Below are positions 19,006 to 57,473 of a stretch of 63,150 nucleotides of DNA, piece after piece. A program made the position numbers and the translations under genes. The DNA is from Candidatus Levyibacteriota bacterium (GTDB lineage: Bacteria > Patescibacteriota > Microgenomatia > Levybacterales > UBA12049): positions 3,726-66,875 of the forward strand of contig JBBDZP010000053.1 of NCBI GenBank assembly GCA_040900105.1. Direction: 5' to 3'. Each line of letters begins with the position of its first letter. Position 1 is the first letter of the stretch. Under the pieces are notes generated by a model, which did no database searches, was not told where the DNA came from, and was given only the letters and a program-made list of their open reading frames with translations.

Positions 19006-20190
19006 TCATTTTTTCATATTAGAAAGACCATCTTTTTCAAGCTCTTCACACAATGCAATAACTCGCACTGCTTCCTGATATGTAGTTATAATCTTCTCTT
19101 TACCCAAAATAGTAGATATAAAATTATCCATTACATACTGACAAGCGTAATCATGATTATAAACGGTAAAGGGGAAGCGGCGGAAACCAAAATCTGCCTC
19201 TCGCATAAATAGTAATGACAACTTGCTAAAAGTACGCATATATAAACTTGTTGCAAAGCTTAAGGTACGCATATATAGATTTATTGCAAAAGATAGTGGT
19301 TTTCGGGGAAATCCAATTTTAGTTTTTGTAATAATCATCTCGGTGTCAAACCAACCACTATCGCCAAAAAAGTCGGCAACCTGCGTGAATCCTTTGTCTC
19401 CCGTATATAAAACACCATCGATATACGTACCCTTATCTCCCATAATAATAAGATCATAAACCTGAGGGTAAACACAGGAACTATTAACATGAACCTTACC
19501 AATTATATTACTTGGGAATCGTAAGAGTATTGTTGCTGAGGTGTACGGAGCTTTATATTCGGTAAACGAATTTTTTGATACATAGGCGGTACCTTTAACA
19601 GGAGTTTCGTTTGTTAAATGCATCAGAAGATCAAGGGGATGACAACCATGTGCGAAAATGAGGCTTTGTCCGTCTTTTTGTCTCCACTCATCAAATTGAT
19701 TGAAGCGTTCCCGCATGTCGTGCCAGTAATTGGCCTCTATATAGAATAATTTCCCCAGTGTTCCTTTCTTAATAATTTCATGAGCTTTTAAGAATGCGGG
19801 AGCACACCTCATCTGGTGGTGTACGCCGAATACAAGGTTGTTATAGCGTTTTATATAAGGACCAAGACGCTTTGCCTCTGCAAGACTTGCAACCATTGGT
19901 TTTTCACTGAGCACGTGCTTTCCGGCTTCAAGAGAGGCAACAATATTATCAAAGTGTAAGTAATCGGGTGTACAAACCGTCACCGCATCAACACGATTAA
20001 ATAATTCTTCACGGCTTTCTACAATGGTTACATTTTCAATTCCTGCAATTCTCTTGGGATCAAAGCCAAAGATCTCCCCAACATGTGGATTGCGGTTAAG
20101 CCTACGGACATGTGCGCGGCCTGCTCCTCCCAAACCAATAACTCCTATTCGCAATTTTTTAGGTTCACTTTTTCTTCTATTTTGGCTCAT
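19006..20190 (-). CDS. Gfo/Idh/MocA-family NAD(P)-dependent sugar oxidoreductase (with an unusual repeat-containing insertion)
   Basis: LRIGVIGLGGAGRAH Rossmann N-terminus and the EKP motif (LSEKPMV). The track start (20193) is a TTG; the adjacent ATG is at 20190. The C-terminal half carries an in-frame 33-bp tandem duplication. Confidence 0.75.
   Translation of the reverse strand: MSQNRRKSEPKKLRIGVIGLGGAGRAHVRRLNRNPHVGEIFGFDPKRIAGIENVTIVESREELFNRVDAVTVCTPDYLHFDNIVASLEAGKHVLSEKPMVASLAEAKRLGPYIKRYNNLVFGVHHQMRCAPAFLKAHEIIKKGTLGKLFYIEANYWHDMRERFNQFDEWRQKDGQSLIFAHGCHPLDLLMHLTNETPVKGTAYVSKNSFTEYKAPYTSATILLRFPSNIIGKVHVNSSCVYPQVYDLIIMGDKGTYIDGVLYTGDKGFTQVADFFGDSGWFDTEMIITKTKIGFPRKPLSFAINLYMRTLSFATSLYMRTFSKLSLLFMREADFGFRRFPFTVYNHDYACQYVMDNFISTILGKEKIITTYQEAVRVIALCEELEKDGLSNMKK
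19225..19290. repeat. Imperfect 33-bp tandem duplication (2 copies, 28/33 identical) inside the Gfo/Idh/MocA gene
   Basis: Copy 1 is 19225..19257 (gctaaaagtacgcatatataaacttgttgcaaa). Copy 2 is 19258..19290 (gcttaaggtacgcatatatagatttattgcaaa). They encode FAINLYMRTLS and FATSLYMRTFS. Confidence 0.9.
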
Positions 20191-25992: not shown

Positions 25993-27087
25993 TTAAATAG
26001 ACCCTTGCCTCAGTACAGCTTCTTCATATACCCCTACAGTATCCTCAGCAGTCTTTTTCCAAGAAAATTTTTTTGACTGGGCAGTTCCTTTTTCCGATAA
26101 TTTTTTTTGCAACTTGGCATCATTAAAGACTCTTTCAAGTCCAAGAGCAATGTCGCTAATATTGTAAGCATCTACGTAGTAAGCAGCTTCTCCTGCAATT
26201 TCGGGAATTGAGCCCATTTTAGAAGTGACCACCGGACAACCGCAACCCATTGCCTCAAGAATAGGAAGCCCAAACCCTTCATAGAGAGATGGCATAGCAA
26301 AAACTGTTGCCATATTATAAAGAGCGACCAATTCCCCCTGCTCCACAAATCCCAAGACAAAAATATCACCGTCGTCTTTTATTAGCTCTTGTACTTTAAG
26401 CAGATCCTGATTCCAAGGATTAGTTTTATCAAACTCCGCTTGGGATATTGCCTTACCCACCATAACCAGAGGCACTCCTGCAATTTTTACGGCCCGTATA
26501 AGAGAAGGAAGATTTTTGTTCCATGTCACATCACCAACATATAGGACGAAACGCTCTGGTAAGCCGTATCGTTTCTTAATTTCCGACTTCCAACCTGCCT
26601 CGCCGGCAGGCAGGTTTCCGGTCTCCAATCTTCTGAACTCCTCTCCTGCTGCCAAATATACGACCGTTACTTTATCTTCTGGTATACCTACATATTTAAC
26701 AATATCTTTCTTTGAAGACATGGAATCCGTTATTATCCTTTTTGCCTTTCTTAGTCTTGCTTTCTGAATTTTCCATTTAATCTTACCTCTTAATCCTGCT
26801 GGAAAATTATTTGGGAAAACCAAAGGAGTTAAATCATGCACAGTTACAACAAACTTATTTTCGTTATTAAATGGCAGGGTTAGAAAAAAAGGTTCAAAGT
26901 ATGGATAGTGAACTAAATCAACTCCTAACGACACTTTCTCTCCTCTTGTAAAGTAAATATATTCATTGTTTGGATAATACTTCTCAAGTGAGCTTCTTAG
27001 GTTTTCCAGATAAAAGCCTGTTCCCCTTACTCTGTGCTGCAGAAAATGGCCGGATTTAAGCGGGGACACATCAATTGCTATGTTCAC
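25993..27087 (-). CDS. GT4 (GT-B) glycosyltransferase
   Basis: YVGDVTWNKNLPSLI and AMPSLYEGFGLPILEAMGCGCPVVTS. GTG start forming a GTGA overlap with the upstream stop. Confidence 0.8.
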   Translation of the reverse strand: MNIAIDVSPLKSGHFLQHRVRGTGFYLENLRSSLEKYYPNNEYIYFTRGEKVSLGVDLVHYPYFEPFFLTLPFNNENKFVVTVHDLTPLVFPNNFPAGLRGKIKWKIQKARLRKAKRIITDSMSSKKDIVKYVGIPEDKVTVVYLAAGEEFRRLETGNLPAGEAGWKSEIKKRYGLPERFVLYVGDVTWNKNLPSLIRAVKIAGVPLVMVGKAISQAEFDKTNPWNQDLLKVQELIKDDGDIFVLGFVEQGELVALYNMATVFAMPSLYEGFGLPILEAMGCGCPVVTSKMGSIPEIAGEAAYYVDAYNISDIALGLERVFNDAKLQKKLSEKGTAQSKKFSWKKTAEDTVGVYEEAVLRQGSI

Positions 27088-31332: not shown

Positions 31333-32823
31333 CTAAAATTGCTCCCTAATCCACCATTTGGTATGAGAATCGTAAATTTGCCCGAATGTCACATATTTCC
31401 ATCCTTTATCTATTAATGATTTCTCCGATGCATCTGAAAAATTGTAGAGACCAATCGGGCTTATCTCTTTTGATCCGAGGTCTACGCCGCTTGGAAACTC
31501 ACAGTCACTGGAGAGTCCTATTTTCATACCTTCCTTATTAAATTTATGCTTTAAATCCAAAATGAATAAAAGCGAGTAAGTTTCTCTTTCGCGCGCAGTC
31601 TGAATTGTCAACGAGCATGTATAAAGCACAAAATTTTCATTGGGATAGGCTCTTTCCAAATCATCTATTGCAGAGTACATACTCATAGTAAAAGGGTCCT
31701 TTCCCAACTCAGGCATGACTTTTGGAATTGCAAAAAACGTAAGGATTAACAGAGCAAAAACTGCTGCGTACGCCCTAATTTTTATTCTTCCTAGGTGCAA
31801 TATGGTAAATGTTGTAAAAATGAAAACAAACGGTCTAAGGAAATTTAAATATCCAAAATATCTTGGTCCCCAATAATATCTAAGAAGAATAAAATTAAAA
31901 ACAAAAGCAACTATTATAAAGACCATGGGCAAGGAAAGCTTCTTTTTATAAAATGTCCATGCCAAAGCTGCAATAAGTACGGCAATAATTACATTTGCCA
32001 CCCACACCGGAGTACCTAATGCGTCCGACCAGAAAGATGGCCAAAAATCGCGGACATAAAAAAGCCAACGGTTTGGTACGTATATAGCATTTTTCCCTTC
32101 AGTCACATAATAAAAAATGTTTCTTGTATTAAACCAATTATTATTTAACTCAAAAAAGAGAAGCGGGACGAATGCAACAATTACACCCGCAGCTGAGGTA
32201 AGAAAATACAAATATTTTTTTCTCTTATAAAATAAGACTATTAAAGGCAGAATTAGCAGTCCTGCCATTTGGAAATGGAGATTCATGCCTACCCCTATAA
32301 CGATACCCAACGCAAATCCCCACCAGTAAGAAATATTTTTTGATAAAAGTTTTAAAAATATCCATATAGAGAGGGCGGCAAATAAGTTAGTATTATTGTG
32401 ACTTGTCAGATGGGTTGCGGAAATAACTTGGGCAGGAGAAATTGCGGAAATGAAAGCAAGGACTAGCCCAAATACCTTACCTCCCAGGAGGTAGCCAATT
32501 TTATACATTATAAAAACGTATAGAACCGAGATCACTCCTAGATAAATCCATGGTGTATATACAAATGGGAGGATAATCGTAGCTAAAATAAGCTGGTACG
32601 CATACCACGGACCAAAAGTGAAGGGCCCAAGAGATGAAAAAGAACCAACCAGAGGAAATTGTAACTGTCTTGCTCCTTCTATTCCAATGACTGCATCTCT
32701 GATAGTCTCCACCCCCATGCCGTACCTGTAAGGAACGTTATAAAATCTAAGTATCGCAGCACCAAGCAATATCAGAAATAAAACATAGAGATGGACATGC
32801 TTCTTTTTAAAAAACTTTTTCAT
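31333..32823 (-). CDS. COG1807/ArnT-like GT-C membrane glycosyltransferase candidate
   Basis: 496 aa, polytopic. LRFYNVPYRYGMGVETIRDAVIG...LGPFTFGPWYAY is paralogous to 46516..48048 (RFYNYDNRWSLAHDQARDALIG...MGPIWYW). Confidence 0.55.
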   Translation of the reverse strand: MKKFFKKKHVHLYVLFLILLGAAILRFYNVPYRYGMGVETIRDAVIGIEGARQLQFPLVGSFSSLGPFTFGPWYAYQLILATIILPFVYTPWIYLGVISVLYVFIMYKIGYLLGGKVFGLVLAFISAISPAQVISATHLTSHNNTNLFAALSIWIFLKLLSKNISYWWGFALGIVIGVGMNLHFQMAGLLILPLIVLFYKRKKYLYFLTSAAGVIVAFVPLLFFELNNNWFNTRNIFYYVTEGKNAIYVPNRWLFYVRDFWPSFWSDALGTPVWVANVIIAVLIAALAWTFYKKKLSLPMVFIIVAFVFNFILLRYYWGPRYFGYLNFLRPFVFIFTTFTILHLGRIKIRAYAAVFALLILTFFAIPKVMPELGKDPFTMSMYSAIDDLERAYPNENFVLYTCSLTIQTARERETYSLLFILDLKHKFNKEGMKIGLSSDCEFPSGVDLGSKEISPIGLYNFSDASEKSLIDKGWKYVTFGQIYDSHTKWWIREQF

Positions 32824-33587
32824 GCATTTATTATAAATTTTAGATAGGATAACGGAAATCTAAGTGCAGAAAAAAACGAAAAAACAAAACCCTGCCAACT
32901 ATCCATGAATCCCTTGTGTCTTATGTAGGTTAACAAAAACCACCATACGGGAAGAATAAGTAAGTATTTTATAGCAGTAACTGGATTGTACCATTTCACA
33001 TTTGATTCTTTAAGCTGCTTTGCTATAAATGACGTATATCTTTGCCACCTTTTAAAGTACCTCTCAAACTCCGGGTCTGACATATGAATAAGGGGATTTT
33101 TTAAATATCCAATTTCCCCTTCAACTACTGCCTGTTCATGAACATCTTTCTGTGGCAATCTCCCTTTTCCTTTTCTGTAGAGTCTTAAAGTATAGTCCGG
33201 ATATTGTCCTCCTTTCATAAGAAACCTGCCCAAAAACCAATTTTCCCGAGGAATCCAGTATCCGTTTATATTTGAGCATTTGATATTTGAGATTTGAGAT
33301 TTGATTTCATCACGAAGTGATGGTGTTACTCTCTCATCAGCATCAAGCTGCAGAATCCATTCTCTTGTTGCCATATCGATTGCTTTCTGTTTATTAATGT
33401 GAAAATTCTCACGATTCTCTACGACTTTAGTTTTAGCATTGTATTTTTTTGCAATCTCAAGCGTTGCATCTTTAGATGTACCGTCAACAATTACAATTTC
33501 ATCTGCTAAATTCCTAACTGACTTAAGACAGTCTGGTAAATTTTTCTCTTCGTTGTAAGTTGCAAGAACTACAGAAATCGTCGCCAT
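32820..33587 (-). CDS. GT2 glycosyltransferase (WaaE/KdtX-like type with hydrophobic C-terminal tail), paralog A
   Basis: ISVVLATYNEEKNLPDCL, VIVDGTSKDAT, LDADERV, YWIPRENWFLG and the C-terminal FMDSWQGF region. Paralogs at 56724..57473 and 58386..59291. Contains a heptamer array. Confidence 0.8.
   Translation of the reverse strand: MATISVVLATYNEEKNLPDCLKSVRNLADEIVIVDGTSKDATLEIAKKYNAKTKVVENRENFHINKQKAIDMATREWILQLDADERVTPSLRDEIKSQISNIKCSNINGYWIPRENWFLGRFLMKGGQYPDYTLRLYRKGKGRLPQKDVHEQAVVEGEIGYLKNPLIHMSDPEFERYFKRWQRYTSFIAKQLKESNVKWYNPVTAIKYLLILPVWWFLLTYIRHKGFMDSWQGFVFSFFSALRFPLSYLKFIINA
33278..33305. repeat. Heptanucleotide tandem array (ATTTGAK)x4 on the plus strand, inside the GT2 gene
   Basis: atttgat atttgag atttgag atttgat at 33278..33305. 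A fifth copy (33270..33276) is separated by one inserted c. The minus-strand reading encodes EIKSQISNIKCSNIN. Confidence 0.9.
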
Positions 33588-36842: not shown

Positions 36843-38521
36843 GGTGACACTATTTTCATTGCCGCTTTACCATCTGGATAATGAACTACAGAATCATAGC
36901 TTATACTTTTCGGAAAATCTATTTCCCTTCCAACAAATAAAATATCCCTCTCCTGTTGATCCTGTTCCCAATTTATTGGCCTGAATTCAAATTTGCCAAA
37001 TGTATGATTTTCCCTAAATCCACCTGACGCATTAACACTTTGCTTCTGATAAAGATCGGGCGGATATTTTAGGTAAAAAAGAAAAAACATGTAGGATTGG
37101 TCCATGGGTGCTTCGTTTGAAACAACAATTTTTCTATAGTTCCCTTCCACTTTTTTTACTTCAGGGATTACCTTTTCGTATCCGTATTGCCATTCTCCGG
37201 CATTAAAATAGTTTTGTTGCACGAAGTACTGATTGAGGTAATATGTAAAATTAAATACAGCAAGTAACAAATAACAAATAGCAAATAGCTTCGCAATTCT
37301 TATACCTGATACCTGATACCTGATACCTGATACAAAACTTAGCGATGTAATTATGCCAATTGCCGTAAATATCTGGAAGGTAGGAAGAAAATTTAAAGTT
37401 CTTACTGCGTGAGGAACACCGCTTGTAATAGACGCTGGTACTGGGGTAAGCAGAAACCATGCAAATATAAAAATCTTAGTTTTCTTACTAAAGGGACCAA
37501 ATAAAAGCATATAAATACCTATTAGAAGAAGTGGTAATTCAAAAATGTATAGAAGGCCCATGCTTGGAGCATGATGACGGCTTATATCTCCTCTTGTAAA
37601 AAGCCAATTTAAATCAAAGTGGGATAAATAACCCGACACTACTTCTTTAGCAAAAAGAATGCGGCGGTTGTCCAAAACCATTCCCAAAACATCATGGTTC
37701 TCCACATCCACAAGTACCCTCTTGGTACTTTCGGACAAGAGTTGGGTGCTGTCTGAGAAAACGCTGACACCTTTTGCCCGCTGCAGCGAACTCCTATCTG
37801 TAAGGATGTGGAAAAACATGGGGGCAACTATAAGAGCGCCTAAAACTGCTGCTCCTAAAATATACTTTTTAGGTTTTGCTAAAATCTCCTTTCTATAGAT
37901 AGTAATAAGGGTGAGTATTACAAGTGGTACAAAAACCTTCTCACTTTGATAGACGTAGATAGATAGGCCCGCAAAGACCGCTGATAATATAAAAAACCAA
38001 GGTTTTTTTAAACCTTTCAGAAAAAACAGCATGGAAAAGACATTAAATGAAAGGCCTACGTTTGATTCAAAAGCTATCCTGCTAAATTGGATATGCCACG
38101 GGGAAATTGCCAGAAGGAAAGTAGCAAGAATTGGAATGTCTATAGTAAATCCTCTTGCTTCAAGCTTTAGATTTTTCTGCCCAAAAAGTTCCCTTAATAG
38201 AAAGTAAACTGCAATAACTGTAAGTGTTCCAAAAAGAGCAGACACGAATCTTACAGCAAAAACATTCATTCCAAAAACTGCAACTACCGGTATTGCAAGA
38301 TAGGAATAAAGCGCAGGTTTGTAGTCGTCAAAGGAGCGCATAACTATTGGCAGGAACTTTCCGTATTCATCCCGGCCTGTTTGCATTAGGGAATAAGCAT
38401 TGTATCCCAACGATACTTCATCCCAGTCTGGAGAGACAGGAACCTTCCCCAATTGCCAAAATCGCAGAATCCCCCCAATAAGTAAAATCGCAGATAGCAG
38501 AATAAAGGTCTTTTTTTTCAT
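36839..38521 (-). CDS. GT39/PMT_2-like GT-C membrane glycosyltransferase (tandem paralog 2)
   Basis: LRFWQLGKVPVSPDWDEVSLGYNAYS...DEYG, ISPWHIQFSRIAFE, VPHAVRTLNFLPTFQI and SYMFFLFYLKYPPDLYQ...FGKFEFRP. Contains two adjacent heptamer arrays. Confidence 0.75.
   Translation of the reverse strand: MKKKTFILLSAILLIGGILRFWQLGKVPVSPDWDEVSLGYNAYSLMQTGRDEYGKFLPIVMRSFDDYKPALYSYLAIPVVAVFGMNVFAVRFVSALFGTLTVIAVYFLLRELFGQKNLKLEARGFTIDIPILATFLLAISPWHIQFSRIAFESNVGLSFNVFSMLFFLKGLKKPWFFILSAVFAGLSIYVYQSEKVFVPLVILTLITIYRKEILAKPKKYILGAAVLGALIVAPMFFHILTDRSSLQRAKGVSVFSDSTQLLSESTKRVLVDVENHDVLGMVLDNRRILFAKEVVSGYLSHFDLNWLFTRGDISRHHAPSMGLLYIFELPLLLIGIYMLLFGPFSKKTKIFIFAWFLLTPVPASITSGVPHAVRTLNFLPTFQIFTAIGIITSLSFVSGIRYQVSGIRIAKLFAICYLLLAVFNFTYYLNQYFVQQNYFNAGEWQYGYEKVIPEVKKVEGNYRKIVVSNEAPMDQSYMFFLFYLKYPPDLYQKQSVNASGGFRENHTFGKFEFRPINWEQDQQERDILFVGREIDFPKSISYDSVVHYPDGKAAMKIVSP
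37261..37288. repeat. Degenerate heptanucleotide array (CAARTAR)x4, adjacent to the previous array
   Basis: caagtaa caaataa caaatag caaatag at 37261..37288. Coding strand is CTATTTG CTATTTG TTATTTG TTACTTG, encoding LFAICYLLL, part of a TM helix. Confidence 0.75.
37302..37333. repeat. Heptanucleotide tandem array (ATACCTG)x4.6 on the plus strand (coding strand GTATCAG), inside the GT39 gene
   Basis: Four perfect copies at 37302..37329 plus the partial copy atac. Encodes VSGIRYQVSGIR in a loop that is about 7 aa longer than in the neighbouring paralogs. Confidence 0.9.
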
Positions 38522-49657: not shown

Positions 49658-51916
49658 TTAAAAAAGACTATTATAAAATACTATCTCATGTGTACCCTTT
49701 GGAACTAAGACTCCCCTAAAATTAAAATCGGTTAAATGAATTTTTACTTTTTTGCCATCGATTCTTGCTTTCCATGTTGGGTAGAAGCTGTCGGTTAAAA
49801 CCAGAAATCCTTCTTCGGTGTTTTGGGTTTTAACAATCACTTCGTTCTCATTATAATTTAAGATTTCTGCCGTTCCAACTCCAAAATTTCCGGATTCAAA
49901 GTTTTCAACCACCGCTAGATTATTTAAGGAATCTTTCTTGTCAAACAACATAACAACAGCTTCTTCCTTACTCTCCACGTCTACCACAACATTAACAAAA
50001 AATGCTCTTGGTAATACTTTTCTATTTTCATAAATTCTCGTCTCTCCCTCTTGAAAAACCTTGGTAAGATTTTCATTATCAACGTCTGAAAGACTCAATA
50101 CGTACTTCACTCCGAGCAAATTTATGATGCTTGATGAATAATTATGAGGATTTATAATTCTATTAAAACCGAAAGGTGGGTTGATGTTTGTGTTTCCGCG
50201 TTCAGATGCAGCGATTAGTTCTCCATATCTTAAAATATACAGCGGATCGTAGACATCTACGCTTTGAATTTTATAAACGGCTGAAAAATTAGGTGGAAAA
50301 ATTCTTGAATCTGTCGTCATAAACCTAAAATTTCCTAGATTTTCCTTAAGGTATGCTATGGTAGAGGTTGAAGGGAATAAATATTCTTTCTTAGTGAACG
50401 GATTAAATTTCAAGCTGAACCGTAGAAGGTCAATCATTACTAAAATAATGATTAAATACAAAACAGTCTGCAGAATCTTTTGATTCTTATAACGCCTTGC
50501 TAAGGCGTAACAGGTAATGATAACAATGGCCGCAAAAAACATAGCAGTTGGAAAAATAAGATTTTGTTTTGCAACAGATAGATGATCTACGGGTAAATAC
50601 TTATCTCCAAAAGTCACAAATGTCCACAAAGATATAAAGACTACCGCGATAAATCCCAGAGGATAAGCTATTCCTTTTCCGGTTTTAATAAACCTATCAA
50701 GGCCCAATGCCGCTAAAACACTTAACGAAAACCCTGTAATAAAAAGTAGCCTGGTTGGCTGGGATGTATCAACAAATGGGATATTAAGCATAAATGGAAG
50801 TTTTGCAAAAATTGTTGGAAGAGCAAAAATCAAAGACGCAAAAAATGCTGTACCGAAAAACAATGTTTTCTTGTCTCTTCTAAAAAATAGGGCAAATATG
50901 GAAAATATTAATGGCAGTATTCCAACATAACCAATAAATTCTCCCCAGTTCCATACTCCAAAATAGTTAAGCGTTACAGGATTTCCAAAAAAGTCCGGTG
51001 CGAAAAATTGGATAAGATGTTCCCAGGGGATAAACCAACCACCGGCTTGCCAATTTAAATCTATACCTCTGGCTGAAAGCATAATAAATTGCAACGTAGG
51101 GATCCACTGTACTGCGGTGAGTATTATGAATAGTGTAGTAAGTATTATGTATAAAAATAGTAAAATTTTCTTACTTTCTGAATTAAAAAATCTCGCAAGC
51201 AGATATGCAAAAGAAAAAATTATCAAATAAAAGAATACCTGTAAGTGACCTGCAAAAAATGATGAAGCAAGAGAAAAGAGATAAACAAAACTCCAAAGAA
51301 TGACATTTCTGTTTTTGATACTTACTATTTGATACTTACTATTTGATACTAACTTATCTATAGATAACAGAATAAGAGGAAGCCAAAGTGCTGTATGAAG
51401 AATTGTTCCCCACTCAAGCCAAGCGGTAAAGAACCCACACAGAGCAAATGTCATAGATCCTAGTACACTCGCTTCTTTTGAGAGTTTTAAATTAGATAAG
51501 TACATATACAGAAAAACTGCGGCAAGCAATGGTCCCAGAAATATAAGCAGGCTCCAAGCATAACTCATAGGCAGCATAAGAAATAGAATATTAAGGGGGT
51601 AAAAAGATGCGGACTGAAAATTTGCGAGAAGCGGTGCTCCAGCCGCGTTATACGGATTCCAAAGAGGAAGAGTGTTTTTTTTCTCAGCTTCTGCAACAAG
51701 CTGTTTCCACGGATACAATTGTCTCACAGGATCTGTAATTAGAGAATTTTTGAATGGTATCCCTCTTGGATAATCTTTTGCGTAAAGATCTCTAAAGGGG
51801 TGGTAGAGTCCAATAATAGTATCTGACGGGATTGGTAGGAGTCCCCGTGCTATGAATTGATAAAATAAAATTACTATGGCAGCTAAAATAAATAAAAACG
51901 GGAATAATTTTTTCAT
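49658..51916 (-). CDS. YfhO-family GT-C membrane glycosyltransferase
   Basis: 752 aa. DPVRQLYPW, LPLWNPYNAAGAPLLANFQSASFYPLN and C-terminal FYPTWKARIDGKKVKIHLTDFNFRGVLVPKGTHEI match my memory of the YfhO family. Contains a 14-nt tandem array. Confidence 0.7.
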   Translation of the reverse strand: MKKLFPFLFILAAIVILFYQFIARGLLPIPSDTIIGLYHPFRDLYAKDYPRGIPFKNSLITDPVRQLYPWKQLVAEAEKKNTLPLWNPYNAAGAPLLANFQSASFYPLNILFLMLPMSYAWSLLIFLGPLLAAVFLYMYLSNLKLSKEASVLGSMTFALCGFFTAWLEWGTILHTALWLPLILLSIDKLVSNSKYQIVSIKNRNVILWSFVYLFSLASSFFAGHLQVFFYLIIFSFAYLLARFFNSESKKILLFLYIILTTLFIILTAVQWIPTLQFIMLSARGIDLNWQAGGWFIPWEHLIQFFAPDFFGNPVTLNYFGVWNWGEFIGYVGILPLIFSIFALFFRRDKKTLFFGTAFFASLIFALPTIFAKLPFMLNIPFVDTSQPTRLLFITGFSLSVLAALGLDRFIKTGKGIAYPLGFIAVVFISLWTFVTFGDKYLPVDHLSVAKQNLIFPTAMFFAAIVIITCYALARRYKNQKILQTVLYLIIILVMIDLLRFSLKFNPFTKKEYLFPSTSTIAYLKENLGNFRFMTTDSRIFPPNFSAVYKIQSVDVYDPLYILRYGELIAASERGNTNINPPFGFNRIINPHNYSSSIINLLGVKYVLSLSDVDNENLTKVFQEGETRIYENRKVLPRAFFVNVVVDVESKEEAVVMLFDKKDSLNNLAVVENFESGNFGVGTAEILNYNENEVIVKTQNTEEGFLVLTDSFYPTWKARIDGKKVKIHLTDFNFRGVLVPKGTHEIVFYNSLF
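51314..51350. repeat. 14-nt tandem array (TACTATTTGATACT)x2.6 inside the YfhO gene
   Basis: Partial copy tttgatact at 51314..51322, then perfect 14-mers at 51323..51336 and 51337..51350. Coding strand is AGTATCAAATAGTA and encodes SNSKYQIVSIK. The loop is about 10 aa longer than in the YfhO paralog. Confidence 0.9.
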
Positions 51917-55603: not shown

Positions 55604-56748
55604 TTTCTTATTATATATTTGCGAGCAGATTCGTATAATGCTTTCGTAGCAATAATATAAATAAATGGAAGCAATGGCATAAAATATCTAACAGAAACAT
55701 TTCCCACCGATAGTAGGGCGCAGTAGGAAATTATCCAGAATAAAATTATTTTGTCTGCATTCTCCAGTTTTTTCTTTAATATTTTCTCTAAGAAAAACAA
55801 TATTGAAAGAATTGTTGAAATGGGCCATGCGATTATCCATTGAACATCCGAAGATATTGCCCTATCTGCCCACCATGTATGCCACCTGTTAAAAATCAAG
55901 AGATCCCAAAATGAAAGTATAATTCCAATCTCTGATTTGTGATATGTATAAATATATTTTTGAATACTGAATACACTTAACAGAGCATAACCATCCATAA
56001 TTGTTTTAAAATATGAAGCAATTAAAACAGCTAGCGATATAGGCAAAGTGAGGACGAAAGCAAAAATTTTCCTAATATCTCTTTCTAAGAGAAGATATGC
56101 AATAAATGCTAAAAGAAGAAATGCACCCAAAATAAAAAATCTGGTACTAATAACTGCTCCCAACATAACAGATACTAAAATAAACCATCTCGTATAATTT
56201 TTACTCCTGTTTGCCCTAATAAAAAAATATAAAGCAAAGATTATAAAAGGTAATTGAATCGGTTCTATAAGAGGCAAATTAACTGCAGTATTCAAAAAAA
56301 GAGGTTCGTTTAAAAAAACAGCCAAAGGTACAAGCGCCAGCAGGCTATTTTTAAGACTTGCTTTTGCTATTAAAAAAACTCCAAAAGCAGAAAGACCCAA
56401 AAGAATAATTGAAGTTGTTATCGCATTATCAAAAATAATAATCGAGAGCCCGATTAAATATAAACCGAGTGGAGGCTGGTCAGATAAAACCAGAATAGGA
56501 TTAGCTCCTCTTATAAGCGCTCCTCCCGCATACGCTTCCATAGTCTGGTCTGGAATTATCCCCGGATTTATTTTTGTAACATACTGCGAAGTTTCATAAG
56601 CCCGCTTTAGAGGTTCGTATTGATAGTTTCTGTAAAAGAAAGGCTCCCTATTTTGATAAAGCAGTATCGCGGGCCTTATTAAAATTAGAATCAAAAAACA
56701 CAACGCAAATATATTAGTTTTGTTTATCTTTTTCTTTGGAGCTCCCAT
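55600..56748 (-). CDS. Short PMT/GT39-like polytopic membrane protein (GT-C candidate)
   Basis: 382 aa. The first loop, DQTMEAYAGGALIRGANPILVLSDQPPLGLYLIGLS, resembles the PMT DE...HPPLGK motif region. About 9-10 TM segments. Confidence 0.45.
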   Translation of the reverse strand: MGAPKKKINKTNIFALCFLILILIRPAILLYQNREPFFYRNYQYEPLKRAYETSQYVTKINPGIIPDQTMEAYAGGALIRGANPILVLSDQPPLGLYLIGLSIIIFDNAITTSIILLGLSAFGVFLIAKASLKNSLLALVPLAVFLNEPLFLNTAVNLPLIEPIQLPFIIFALYFFIRANRSKNYTRWFILVSVMLGAVISTRFFILGAFLLLAFIAYLLLERDIRKIFAFVLTLPISLAVLIASYFKTIMDGYALLSVFSIQKYIYTYHKSEIGIILSFWDLLIFNRWHTWWADRAISSDVQWIIAWPISTILSILFFLEKILKKKLENADKIILFWIISYCALLSVGNVSVRYFMPLLPFIYIIATKALYESARKYIIRK

Positions 56749-57473
56749 AATCTTGCATAGGTTATAAAAATGCTAAAAGCCTGATACATACTTTCTATGA
56801 GTCCGGCTGTACCAACTTTAAATCCCTTTTGTAAGATATAGTAGTCAACAAAAGTTGATACCATAACCCGTGGAAATCTCCACCAGGACATCTTGGGGTG
56901 CCCGGCATCATACCTTAGCTGTGCTTCTACCTTTGACCATTCTATGGTCTTTTTGAGCATTTGGGAAAGATTTCTGTGCGTATAGTGGAGCAAGAATCCT
57001 GACAGCTCCCCTGATTTTCCGGTGGCGATTGGACTTTCATGTAATTTTCCCTCCCATCCTTTAAGATTTTCTCTTCTGAAGAGTCTTTCCATTTTTTCAT
57101 GCTGCGGCCATTCATGATTTCCTAAATAGAAATTCTTTCTTATAACTTTGTACGTCGCAATTTCAGAATATTTGATATTTGATATTTGATATTTGATATT
57201 TCGAGCAAGCTCGCTCGTTACTCTTTCATCCGCATCTACGTAAAACGCCCAATCTCCCGTTACTTGCTTAAGTCCCACATTTCTAAGCTGCGAAAAGTCA
57301 CTGGAGTCGACTCTCACAACTTTTGCGCCCATTCTTTCTGCAATTTGAGGTGTTCTGTCTTCTGAAGCATTATCAACAACAATTATCTCATCGCAAAAAG
57401 AAAGACTATCCAAGCAGTCCGCAATTCTTTCCTCTTCATTCTTTGCAATTACAATCCCCGATATTTTATTCAT
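56724..57473 (-). CDS. GT2 glycosyltransferase (WaaE/KdtX-like type), paralog B
   Basis: ISGIVIAKNEEERIADCL, IVVDNASEDRT, VDADERV, FYLGNHEW and HYTHRNLSQM. The track ORF (to 57683) runs 210 nt into the upstream gene. The ATG at 57473 gives the canonical N-terminus with an 8-nt overlap. Contains a heptamer array. Confidence 0.8.
   Translation of the reverse strand: MNKISGIVIAKNEEERIADCLDSLSFCDEIIVVDNASEDRTPQIAERMGAKVVRVDSSDFSQLRNVGLKQVTGDWAFYVDADERVTSELARNIKYQISNIKYSEIATYKVIRKNFYLGNHEWPQHEKMERLFRRENLKGWEGKLHESPIATGKSGELSGFLLHYTHRNLSQMLKKTIEWSKVEAQLRYDAGHPKMSWWRFPRVMVSTFVDYYILQKGFKVGTAGLIESMYQAFSIFITYARLWELQRKR
57168..57201. repeat. Heptanucleotide tandem array (ATATTTG)x4.9 on the plus strand (coding strand ATATCAA), inside the GT2 gene
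   Basis: Four perfect copies at 57168..57195 plus atattt. Encodes NIKYQISNIKY. It occupies the same loop position as the array in paralog A (33278..33305). Confidence 0.9.

Follow-up and report, generated by a model that had tools for sequence, protein, structure and literature searches.

A conserved, translated heptanucleotide array in a family 2 glycosyltransferase gene of a Levyibacteriota bacterium

Results

The stretch of DNA analysed here, hereafter the window, comprises 63,150 nucleotides of a Candidatus Levyibacteriota bacterium (assembly GCA_040900105.1, contig JBBDZP010000053.1, positions 3,726 to 66,875), and carries, inside a gene for a family 2 glycosyltransferase (GT2), a perfect array of a seven-base unit, (AATATCA)x4.9, at 57168-57201 on the minus strand. 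The genome (G000) is a metagenome-assembled draft of 682,083 bases in 65 contigs, with 39% G+C and about 90% completeness; the names carried by homologs of the host protein place the organism among the Levybacteria, in the Microgenomates of the Candidate Phyla Radiation (CPR). The host gene (56724-57473, minus strand) sits in a large glycosylation cluster and was delimited by translation of its open reading frame (ORF), the start being taken at an ATG that overlaps the stop codon of an upstream GT2 gene by 8 nt. Its 249-amino-acid product matches Pfam PF00535 at 1.3e-16 and 61.4 bits (cut-off 23.3), and a sequence search of the PDB returned the GT2 domain of GmaR as the closest solved structure (5.7e-26). 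An AlphaFold2 model that drew on 120 homologs (mean pLDDT 93) has SunS, ThuS, a Leptospira glycosyltransferase, TarS and SpsA as its Foldseek neighbours, with a probability of 1.00 for SunS, ThuS, TarS and SpsA; as modelled, the host protein is a standard enzyme of the GT-A fold. The two aspartates of its DxD motif (D80-A81-D82; 57228-57236, minus strand), which lies 10 codons upstream of the array, are invariant among 120 orthologs. Homologs number in the thousands, and full-length orthologs free of internal stops occur in 53 of 61 related genomes, with conserved synteny.

Tandem Repeats Finder (TRF) describes the array as period 7, 4.9 copies, 100% matches and a score of 68, and its coding strand reads cgA-(AATATCA)4-AATAT-tct. 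The repeat begins in frame at gene nucleotide 274 and occupies codons 92-102 (57168-57200), which encode N92-I-K-Y-Q-I-S-N-I-K-Y102, between D80-A-D82-E-R-V and F115-Y-L-G-N-H-E-W. In the model, array residues N92-S98 form the C-terminal half of a helix spanning residues 87-98 that follows the DxD motif (DSSP, local pLDDT ~92; codons 87-97 at 57183-57215, minus strand), while N99-Y102 form a turn ahead of strand 105-116. No other heptamer array in the genome has a self-match run of 27 bases, making this the longest perfect one there. A genome simulated by a first-order Markov model of G000 contained no perfect arrays of at least three copies at any period of 6 or more, compared with 10 of period 7 in the real sequence, which excludes a chance origin. 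That the array is real is therefore confirmed. We rejected the idea that it represents a net insertion, as the region differs in length from array-free orthologs by 0-4 residues. The initial annotation, made from the window's sequence alone, had placed the array between the DxD block and FYLGNHEW and had predicted that the gain or loss of one unit would truncate the enzyme. Both statements hold on inspection of the TRF output, sequence and codons, with computed products of 108 residues for loss of one unit and 105 for gain of one, whereas changes of three units stay in frame.

The history of the array can be read from its orthologs, in particular those of two congeners, G001 (82% amino-acid identity) and G003, and of a member of another family, G038 (62%). 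All 34 nucleotides are identical in G001; G038 carries AATATCA x5 at the same site with matching codons; and G003 carries AGTATCA/AGTATGA x4.4, so that tract length is equal in G000, G001 and G038 and 4.4 units in G003. More distant orthologs have ordinary sequence or degenerate traces of a repeat. None of the 11 array codons shows a synonymous difference, compared with 42% (G001) and 59% (G038) of the conserved-residue codons elsewhere in the gene. The probability of such identity is 0.002 for G001 and 5e-5 for G038, or 0.012 and 4e-4, respectively, with residue-specific rates. Since these relatives share the tract or unit despite heavy synonymous divergence around it, the array is not recent, and the claim of the initial annotation that its perfection betrays recent slippage fails. 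As judged from these alignments, the array predates the split of G000 from its congener and probably also the split from the other family.

The same annotation had denied selection on the encoded peptide, and here too the orthologs indicate otherwise. In a set of 120 homologs with 63-82% identity, the pattern [NS]IKYQ[IV][SL][NS]IKY is frequent at the array site and I93 hardly varies. Three orthologs (L232, L233 and L234) keep (N/Y/D)IKYQISNIKY while the underlying repeat has decayed through changes such as ATC to ATT or ATA and AAA to AAG, with approximately six synonymous and two non-synonymous changes across the region; with its residues retained through synonymous substitution, the peptide is under purifying selection. 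Some lineages conserve the DNA repeat in addition to the peptide.

Length variants of the tract were sought in several ways. Among 120 orthologs and 53 genomes with uninterrupted matches there is neither a frameshifted allele nor a variant of plus or minus three units (seven amino acids). When the first 107 residues served as a protein query, 12 short matches were returned, all contig-end fragments or unrelated truncations, and among them no protein shortened by a shift of frame at the array. Patterns combining both flanks with a gap, or degenerate flanks with the array, had no matches to near-relative strain variants in metagenome contigs, and the 90% cluster of the host protein has a single member. 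Copy number thus appears fixed among the relatives available, an outcome that the initial annotation had named as counting against its reading. Separately, a frameshift close to a run of seven adenines breaks one GT2 ortholog on a JGI metagenome contig (L190:1501-2267; P0130) into three ORFs; there is no heptamer array at the break, and this ortholog is either a pseudogene or the product of a homopolymer sequencing error.

The array belongs to a genome-wide class. Period 7 accounts for 144 of the 445 TRF rows of G000, and a further 41 rows have period 14 or 21; perfect arrays of at least three copies number 10 at period 7, and there is no more than one at any other period between 5 and 15. Run lengths show a long tail only at 7, 14 and 21 and none at periods 5, 6 and 8-11, and period 7 is likewise over-represented in G001. 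The genome holds roughly 70-140 seven-base arrays (138 after merging), with 76% A+T and dozens of distinct units, mostly 30-34 nt long. This mode (4-5 units) is found both inside and outside long ORFs, and arrays of 3-4 units are few. Constraint by the reading frame was rejected as an explanation of the 4-5-unit mode, as non-coding arrays share it. Long ORFs, which span 90% of the genome, contain 59-73% of the arrays, such that arrays are relatively enriched between genes although most are translated. Hosts confirmed by Pfam include ribosomal protein L4 (rplD), leucyl-tRNA synthetase (LeuRS, leuS), a ValRS-type synthetase (valS), topoisomerase I (topA), a penicillin-binding protein (PBP) transpeptidase, RecR (recR), thymidylate synthase (thyA) and MurG (murG). 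With such arrays present in essential genes, carrying a heptamer array is no sign of a contingency gene here. Nor is the window, with its glycosylation cluster, enriched: it has seven of the 144 period-7 rows in 9% of the genome, where approximately 13 would be expected.

Heptamer richness is unevenly distributed among relatives, as sampled over 20-57 kb in each of G001-G058 (449 kb for G001 and 40 kb for G002). The rich genomes are G000, G001, G003, G016, G035, G037 and G038, the six relatives among them having 7-17 arrays per 100 kb, whereas density is near zero in the 40 kb of G002, a member of the same genus, and in eleven others. The particular repeat (AATATCA)n is present in 36 of the 245 genomes of the order, compared with two for a reversed control, and never exceeds five units. 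In a wider survey, (AATATCA) in at least four copies was seen across many phyla, in a total of more than 119 genomes that include many members of the CPR as well as Gammaproteobacteria, Bacteroidota, Oscillospiraceae and Richelia. Its hosts are often long ORFs unrelated to one another, in which it is in frame, and the copy number is nearly always 4-5.

The helix following the DxD motif is also occupied in other GT2 genes. Within the window, a GT2 paralog (32820-33587) has a degenerate array (ATCTCAA/ATATCAA, encoding EIKSQISNIKCSNIN; 33268-33305, minus strand, from TRF and ORF translation) at the corresponding helix, and a further paralog, 39% identical to the host (L259; G185:C1), carries (AATATCA)x5 at its post-DxD helix (DADERVSEALASEISNIKYQISNINGF), read in another register. 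Taken together, these cases show that arrays recur at this helix across paralogous families of GT2 enzymes.

We compared G000 with 449 kb of G001 at 26 orthologous sites. At many of these both genomes have an array, often of equal length, with a different unit: SYGILYTVYGIL and SYLILTTLYLIL in valS, AGCGTCC and AAATCTC in topA, and ATTGACC and ATTTGCC in a family 4 glycosyltransferase (GT4) gene. Other pairs differ by 1-2 bases per unit. Where unit variants alternate within arrays, the pattern ABAB occurs 10 times, compared with four for AABB and ABBA combined, an excess that points to events involving two units at a time. In addition, we simulated the 21 possible single-base changes of the AATATCA unit, placing each in every copy of the GT2 array. 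As 7 and 3 share no factor, every base of the unit falls in turn at the first, second and third position of a codon, and all 21 homogenized changes alter at least two residues; none is silent, six create stops, and in 17 of them I93 or K94 is changed. The other four variants retain I93-K94, and one of these, AGTATCA (encoding SIKYQVSSIKY), is the form seen in many orthologs.

The array site also hosts sequences of a different composition. Two GT2 orthologs from Logan assemblies (L235 and L237) have related GC-rich inserts of 24 and 27 nt (CCTTCG...CTCAGGGC.AGG.C) after ...ATC inside the orthologous array, encoding LRLRSGQA and LRPELRARA, and a GC-type insert of some sort is found at this site in approximately nine of the 120 orthologs. 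In a further ortholog (L236, ~480-580), the same loop contains a GC-rich imperfect palindrome of ~90 nt that is 88% identical to an element translated in frame (..GPVASSSRPTSSRSLRSLDGTPSGRATP..) in the topA ORF of G000, outside the window (C18:578-665); by sequence comparison, this palindrome looks like a mobile in-frame element. The GT2 array of the window has no GC-rich insert. A shorter palindrome, CCTGCC(N1-2)GCCGGC(A)AGGCAGG, has eight copies in G000, several of them within heptamer arrays or in frame in genes, and no copy in the 449 kb of G001. The topA copy encodes ..CLPAGRQG.., and a copy in the window (CCTGCCTCGCCGGCAGGCAGG; 26594-26614, plus strand) lies in frame (..NLPAGEAGW..) in a GT4 ORF (25993-27087, minus strand), flanked by degenerate heptamers. 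Neither a transposase nor a mechanism for the GC-rich inserts was identified.

Several other repeats were recorded. Two heptamer arrays of the same genome-wide class (AGCAAAT x4.4 and a perfect ATACCTG x4.6; TRF) lie at 37259-37333 (minus strand) of the window, inside a 582-codon open frame; a 14-nt repeat (TTTGATACTTACTA x2.9), a doublet derived from a heptamer, lies at 51314-51354; and a 33-nt sequence is present twice at 19225-19290. The top-scoring tandem repeat of the genome is its sole long octamer array, a perfect (TTTGATTG)x7.9 at C65:1786-1848. Finally, an intergenic module of (ATTAGAA)n arrays, a CAAATC(C/T)AAA spacer and A/T-rich (AAATTTA)n, sometimes beside the GC palindrome, recurs in G000 at C34:19027-19132, C40:11161-11262, C52:9767-9888, C10:8564-8628, C29:15419-15449 and C3:5728-5758.

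Discussion

We favour, with reasonable but not high confidence, the reading that the GT2 array is a translated, in-frame heptanucleotide microsatellite that is old and frozen, and neither a recent expansion nor a dedicated switch. Under this reading, slippage or conversion within the array, partly in steps of 14 nt, would erase changes confined to a single copy, while changes that spread to every copy would meet peptide selection in all three frames and be removed, such that the array stays perfect. Slips of plus or minus one unit would presumably occur at a low rate and give a truncated, inactive enzyme, thus constituting deleterious mutants and not a regulated on/off state; we read them as deleterious because the arrays in essential genes require it. 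The length ceiling may be set where out-of-register homology of ~28 bp reaches a threshold for recombinational contraction, which is speculation.

Several points sit uneasily with this account. Homogenization is inferred, and in essential genes it would have to proceed without passing through frameshifts. The length peak at 30-34 nt, which is found outside genes too, is contrary to what simple stepwise slippage predicts. Nucleotide-level conservation of a perfect tract would also be expected from selection for mutability, and the perfect array in this gene is known from three genomes only, so that the observation that all are in the ON state comes from a small sample. Further, the patchiness of heptamer density among close relatives hints at a genome-specific cause.

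We put forward tentatively, and regard as improbable on balance, a broader proposition: that in some CPR lineages, patchily even within a genus, a heptamer-specific process forms and homogenizes repeats, writing or maintaining arrays of ~32 nt and turning over the unit while keeping the length. Such a process would act at fixed sites in ordinary and essential genes alike, its arrays would serve as landing sites for tiny in-frame GC-rich palindromic elements, and the GT2 site would be one that peptide constraint in three frames has frozen.

A related explanation, that a dedicated or element-linked repeat-writing process creates or rewrites arrays of ~32 nt in one step at hot spots, in place of growth by ordinary polymerase slippage, with later peptide selection at the GT2 site, we consider doubtful. 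It would account for the 30-34-nt peak in coding and non-coding DNA and the rarity of 3-4-unit arrays, and for the ceiling of five units on (AATATCA)n throughout the 245 genomes of the order. It would also account for orthologous arrays of equal length and unrelated units, as in topA, for the near absence of heptamers from G002, and for the recurrence of (AATATCA) in at least four copies in unrelated ORFs of many phyla. A tie to the small GC-rich palindromic elements is possible, given those nested in arrays at several G000 loci, the inserts within the orthologous GT2 array in L235 and L237, and the element at the array loop of L236 with its close counterpart in topA. However, ortholog differences in the PBP2 gene, a DHH-like gene and murG are graded, resembling point mutation with partial homogenization, and saturated neutral divergence can by itself make units seem unrelated. 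Moreover, a four-unit preference is known for ordinary heptamer simple sequence repeats (SSRs) in Xanthomonas and Nostoc (PMC4692102). Nor does a candidate enzyme track the trait across the 61 relatives: neither reverse transcriptase (PF00078) nor recJ is associated with heptamer richness, and although a mutS match is absent from all seven heptamer-rich genomes, it is also absent from most of the heptamer-poor ones.

A contingency locus, in which slipped-strand mispairing by one unit toggles a surface-glycan enzyme and second-order selection for mutability preserves the tract, is unlikely. Mechanically it is plausible, in line with the truncation predicted by the initial annotation: the length of the unit is not divisible by three, a change of one unit alters expression by truncating the enzyme, and the host is a glycosyltransferase in a large glycosylation cluster, a classical target of phase variation. 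Moreover, the array is the longest perfect one in the genome, and nucleotide conservation of the tract exceeds what the peptide requires. With arrays capped near five units, it may be that no ON state other than 4.9 is within reach, and a constant ON length is therefore not decisive. The comparative data nevertheless give the switch no support. The array has only 4.9 copies, whereas known heptanucleotide switches are far more copious and variable; no OFF allele is present among the 53 genomes or in the protein database, and no copy-number polymorphism with ON and OFF alleles among the three perfect arrays; and the host belongs to the conserved core genes of the order and keeps its synteny. Like arrays in rplD, valS, topA, thyA and other essential genes, where an OFF state would be lethal, are the opposite of the confinement to accessory and surface genes that typifies contingency loci (arrays occur in L4, LeuRS and TopA, among others), and the glycosylation window shows no enrichment of arrays. 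Low-frequency variants of plus or minus one unit surely arise, but their use by the cell is unsupported by evidence, and from these comparisons the array is probably not an on/off switch.

That the array acts as a signal at the level of DNA or RNA, as an internal antisense promoter or a periodic binding site conserved for that purpose, is very improbable. Nucleotide conservation beyond the needs of the peptide would fit such a role, as would a sigma-70-like match on the plus strand (TTGATA-17-GATATT); however, the match to the promoter consensus is weak (9 of 12 positions), three matches compared with 1.2 +/- 1.1 in shuffled sequences is an unclear excess, and we rejected an antisense promoter on this basis. 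RNA structure is absent (z = 0), and a terminator or other structure was likewise rejected, a small hairpin 5' of the array not being conserved in G001. Units vary so widely among the arrays of the genome that they offer no common binding motif, and orthologs can retain the peptide while losing the DNA repeat. An assembly or sequencing artefact or chance repeat has a negligible probability: the genome is a 65-contig metagenome-assembled draft, but other species, assembled independently, have the identical array at matching codons, which refutes an artefact, the ORF is open and matches orthologs on both sides, and the Markov model expects no such repeat.

Several consequences follow. The GT2 array alone is an ordinary microsatellite, and its annotation as a phase-variation switch is unwarranted. 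A heptamer read in three frames, whose copies co-evolve, has no silent sites and can thus stay perfect across family-level divergence, which makes the perfection of a repeat a poor ground for inferring either recent slippage or a contingency locus. More broadly, the preference of bacterial heptamers for four to five units is possible without G-quadruplexes, and the arrays add to the evidence that reduced CPR genomes tolerate and conserve in-frame microsatellites, with nested mini-palindromes, inside essential proteins.

Text searches of the literature returned no published work on heptamer arrays in CPR, and the nearest comparisons come from other bacteria. As summarized in PMC4679880 and PMC4692102, the class of long simple sequence repeats termed LSSR5-11 (Mrazek, Guo and Shah 2007) involves a genome-wide excess of 7-nt units over every other unit length, is thought to reflect general polymerase slippage with no specific function, and is found mainly in the large genomes of non-pathogens (Burkholderia, Xanthomonas, cyanobacteria and actinobacteria), mostly between genes. 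The arrays described here share with LSSR a tandem 7-nt unit above chance and over-representation of period 7 across the genome; they differ in occupying a 0.68-Mb genome, in lying mostly (59-73%) within long ORFs, essential genes included, and in the conservation of the GT2 array across species. The short tandemly repeated repetitive (STRR) heptanucleotides of cyanobacteria have few, fixed units and are mostly intergenic or located just upstream of start codons. The mostly intergenic location, with one or few units, by which LSSR and STRR are recognized is not found here. The TAACTGA repeats of Beggiatoaceae and cyanobacteria are likewise short tandem heptamers of a fixed unit in such locations, dispersed and phylogenetically sporadic (PMC4679880). 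Our arrays resemble STRR and TAACTGA repeats in being short, dispersed and sporadic, with 2-6 copies per site, and differ in that they comprise dozens of unrelated units and are mostly translated.

The GGGNATC heptamers of Xanthomonas and Nostoc are dispersed, G-rich and under-represented in coding sequence, with a preference for approximately four units (Rehm et al. 2015, PMC4692102) that was ascribed to G-quadruplex formation (PMC4692102). Dispersal and a preference for a similar unit number are shared; however, the arrays of G000, being 76% A+T and of many units, cannot form G-quadruplexes, and the common length preference therefore needs another cause. The nested GC-rich inserts of the orthologs, for their part, resemble in behaviour the Rickettsia palindromic elements, which are likewise tiny palindromes in frame within protein genes, and the small dispersed repeats of Nostoc are also said to be tiny palindromic elements in frame, resembling these inserts.

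Two known systems bear directly on the question of switching. The neuO gene of E. coli K1 contains (AAGACTC)n in 3-53 repeats, is OFF in 66% of complete genomes and gives measurable mixed populations (PMC13001214). Like the GT2 array, this heptanucleotide lies within the coding region of an enzyme that modifies surface glycans, encodes heptad peptides and is in frame at only some copy numbers; whereas the neuO repeat is 5', the GT2 array is internal (residues 92-102), with 4.9 copies, a length that is constant in relatives and no OFF allele found, and it lacks the N-terminal heptads, variable in number and tuning or gating enzyme activity, that define the neuO type of variable number tandem repeat. 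In H. influenzae, the promoters of hmw1A and hmw2A carry strain-variable heptanucleotide tracts of 13-38 copies, and an intragenic (AATTTTG)14 is also known (PMC2651432). These too are AT-rich 7-nt units at surface-protein genes, one of them intragenic with a frameshift, yet they stand outside any genome-wide set that includes essential genes. In a tiny genome, in the translation of most arrays, in the multitude of units and in the cross-family nucleotide conservation of the GT2 array, the repeats described here differ from the published classes of heptamers.

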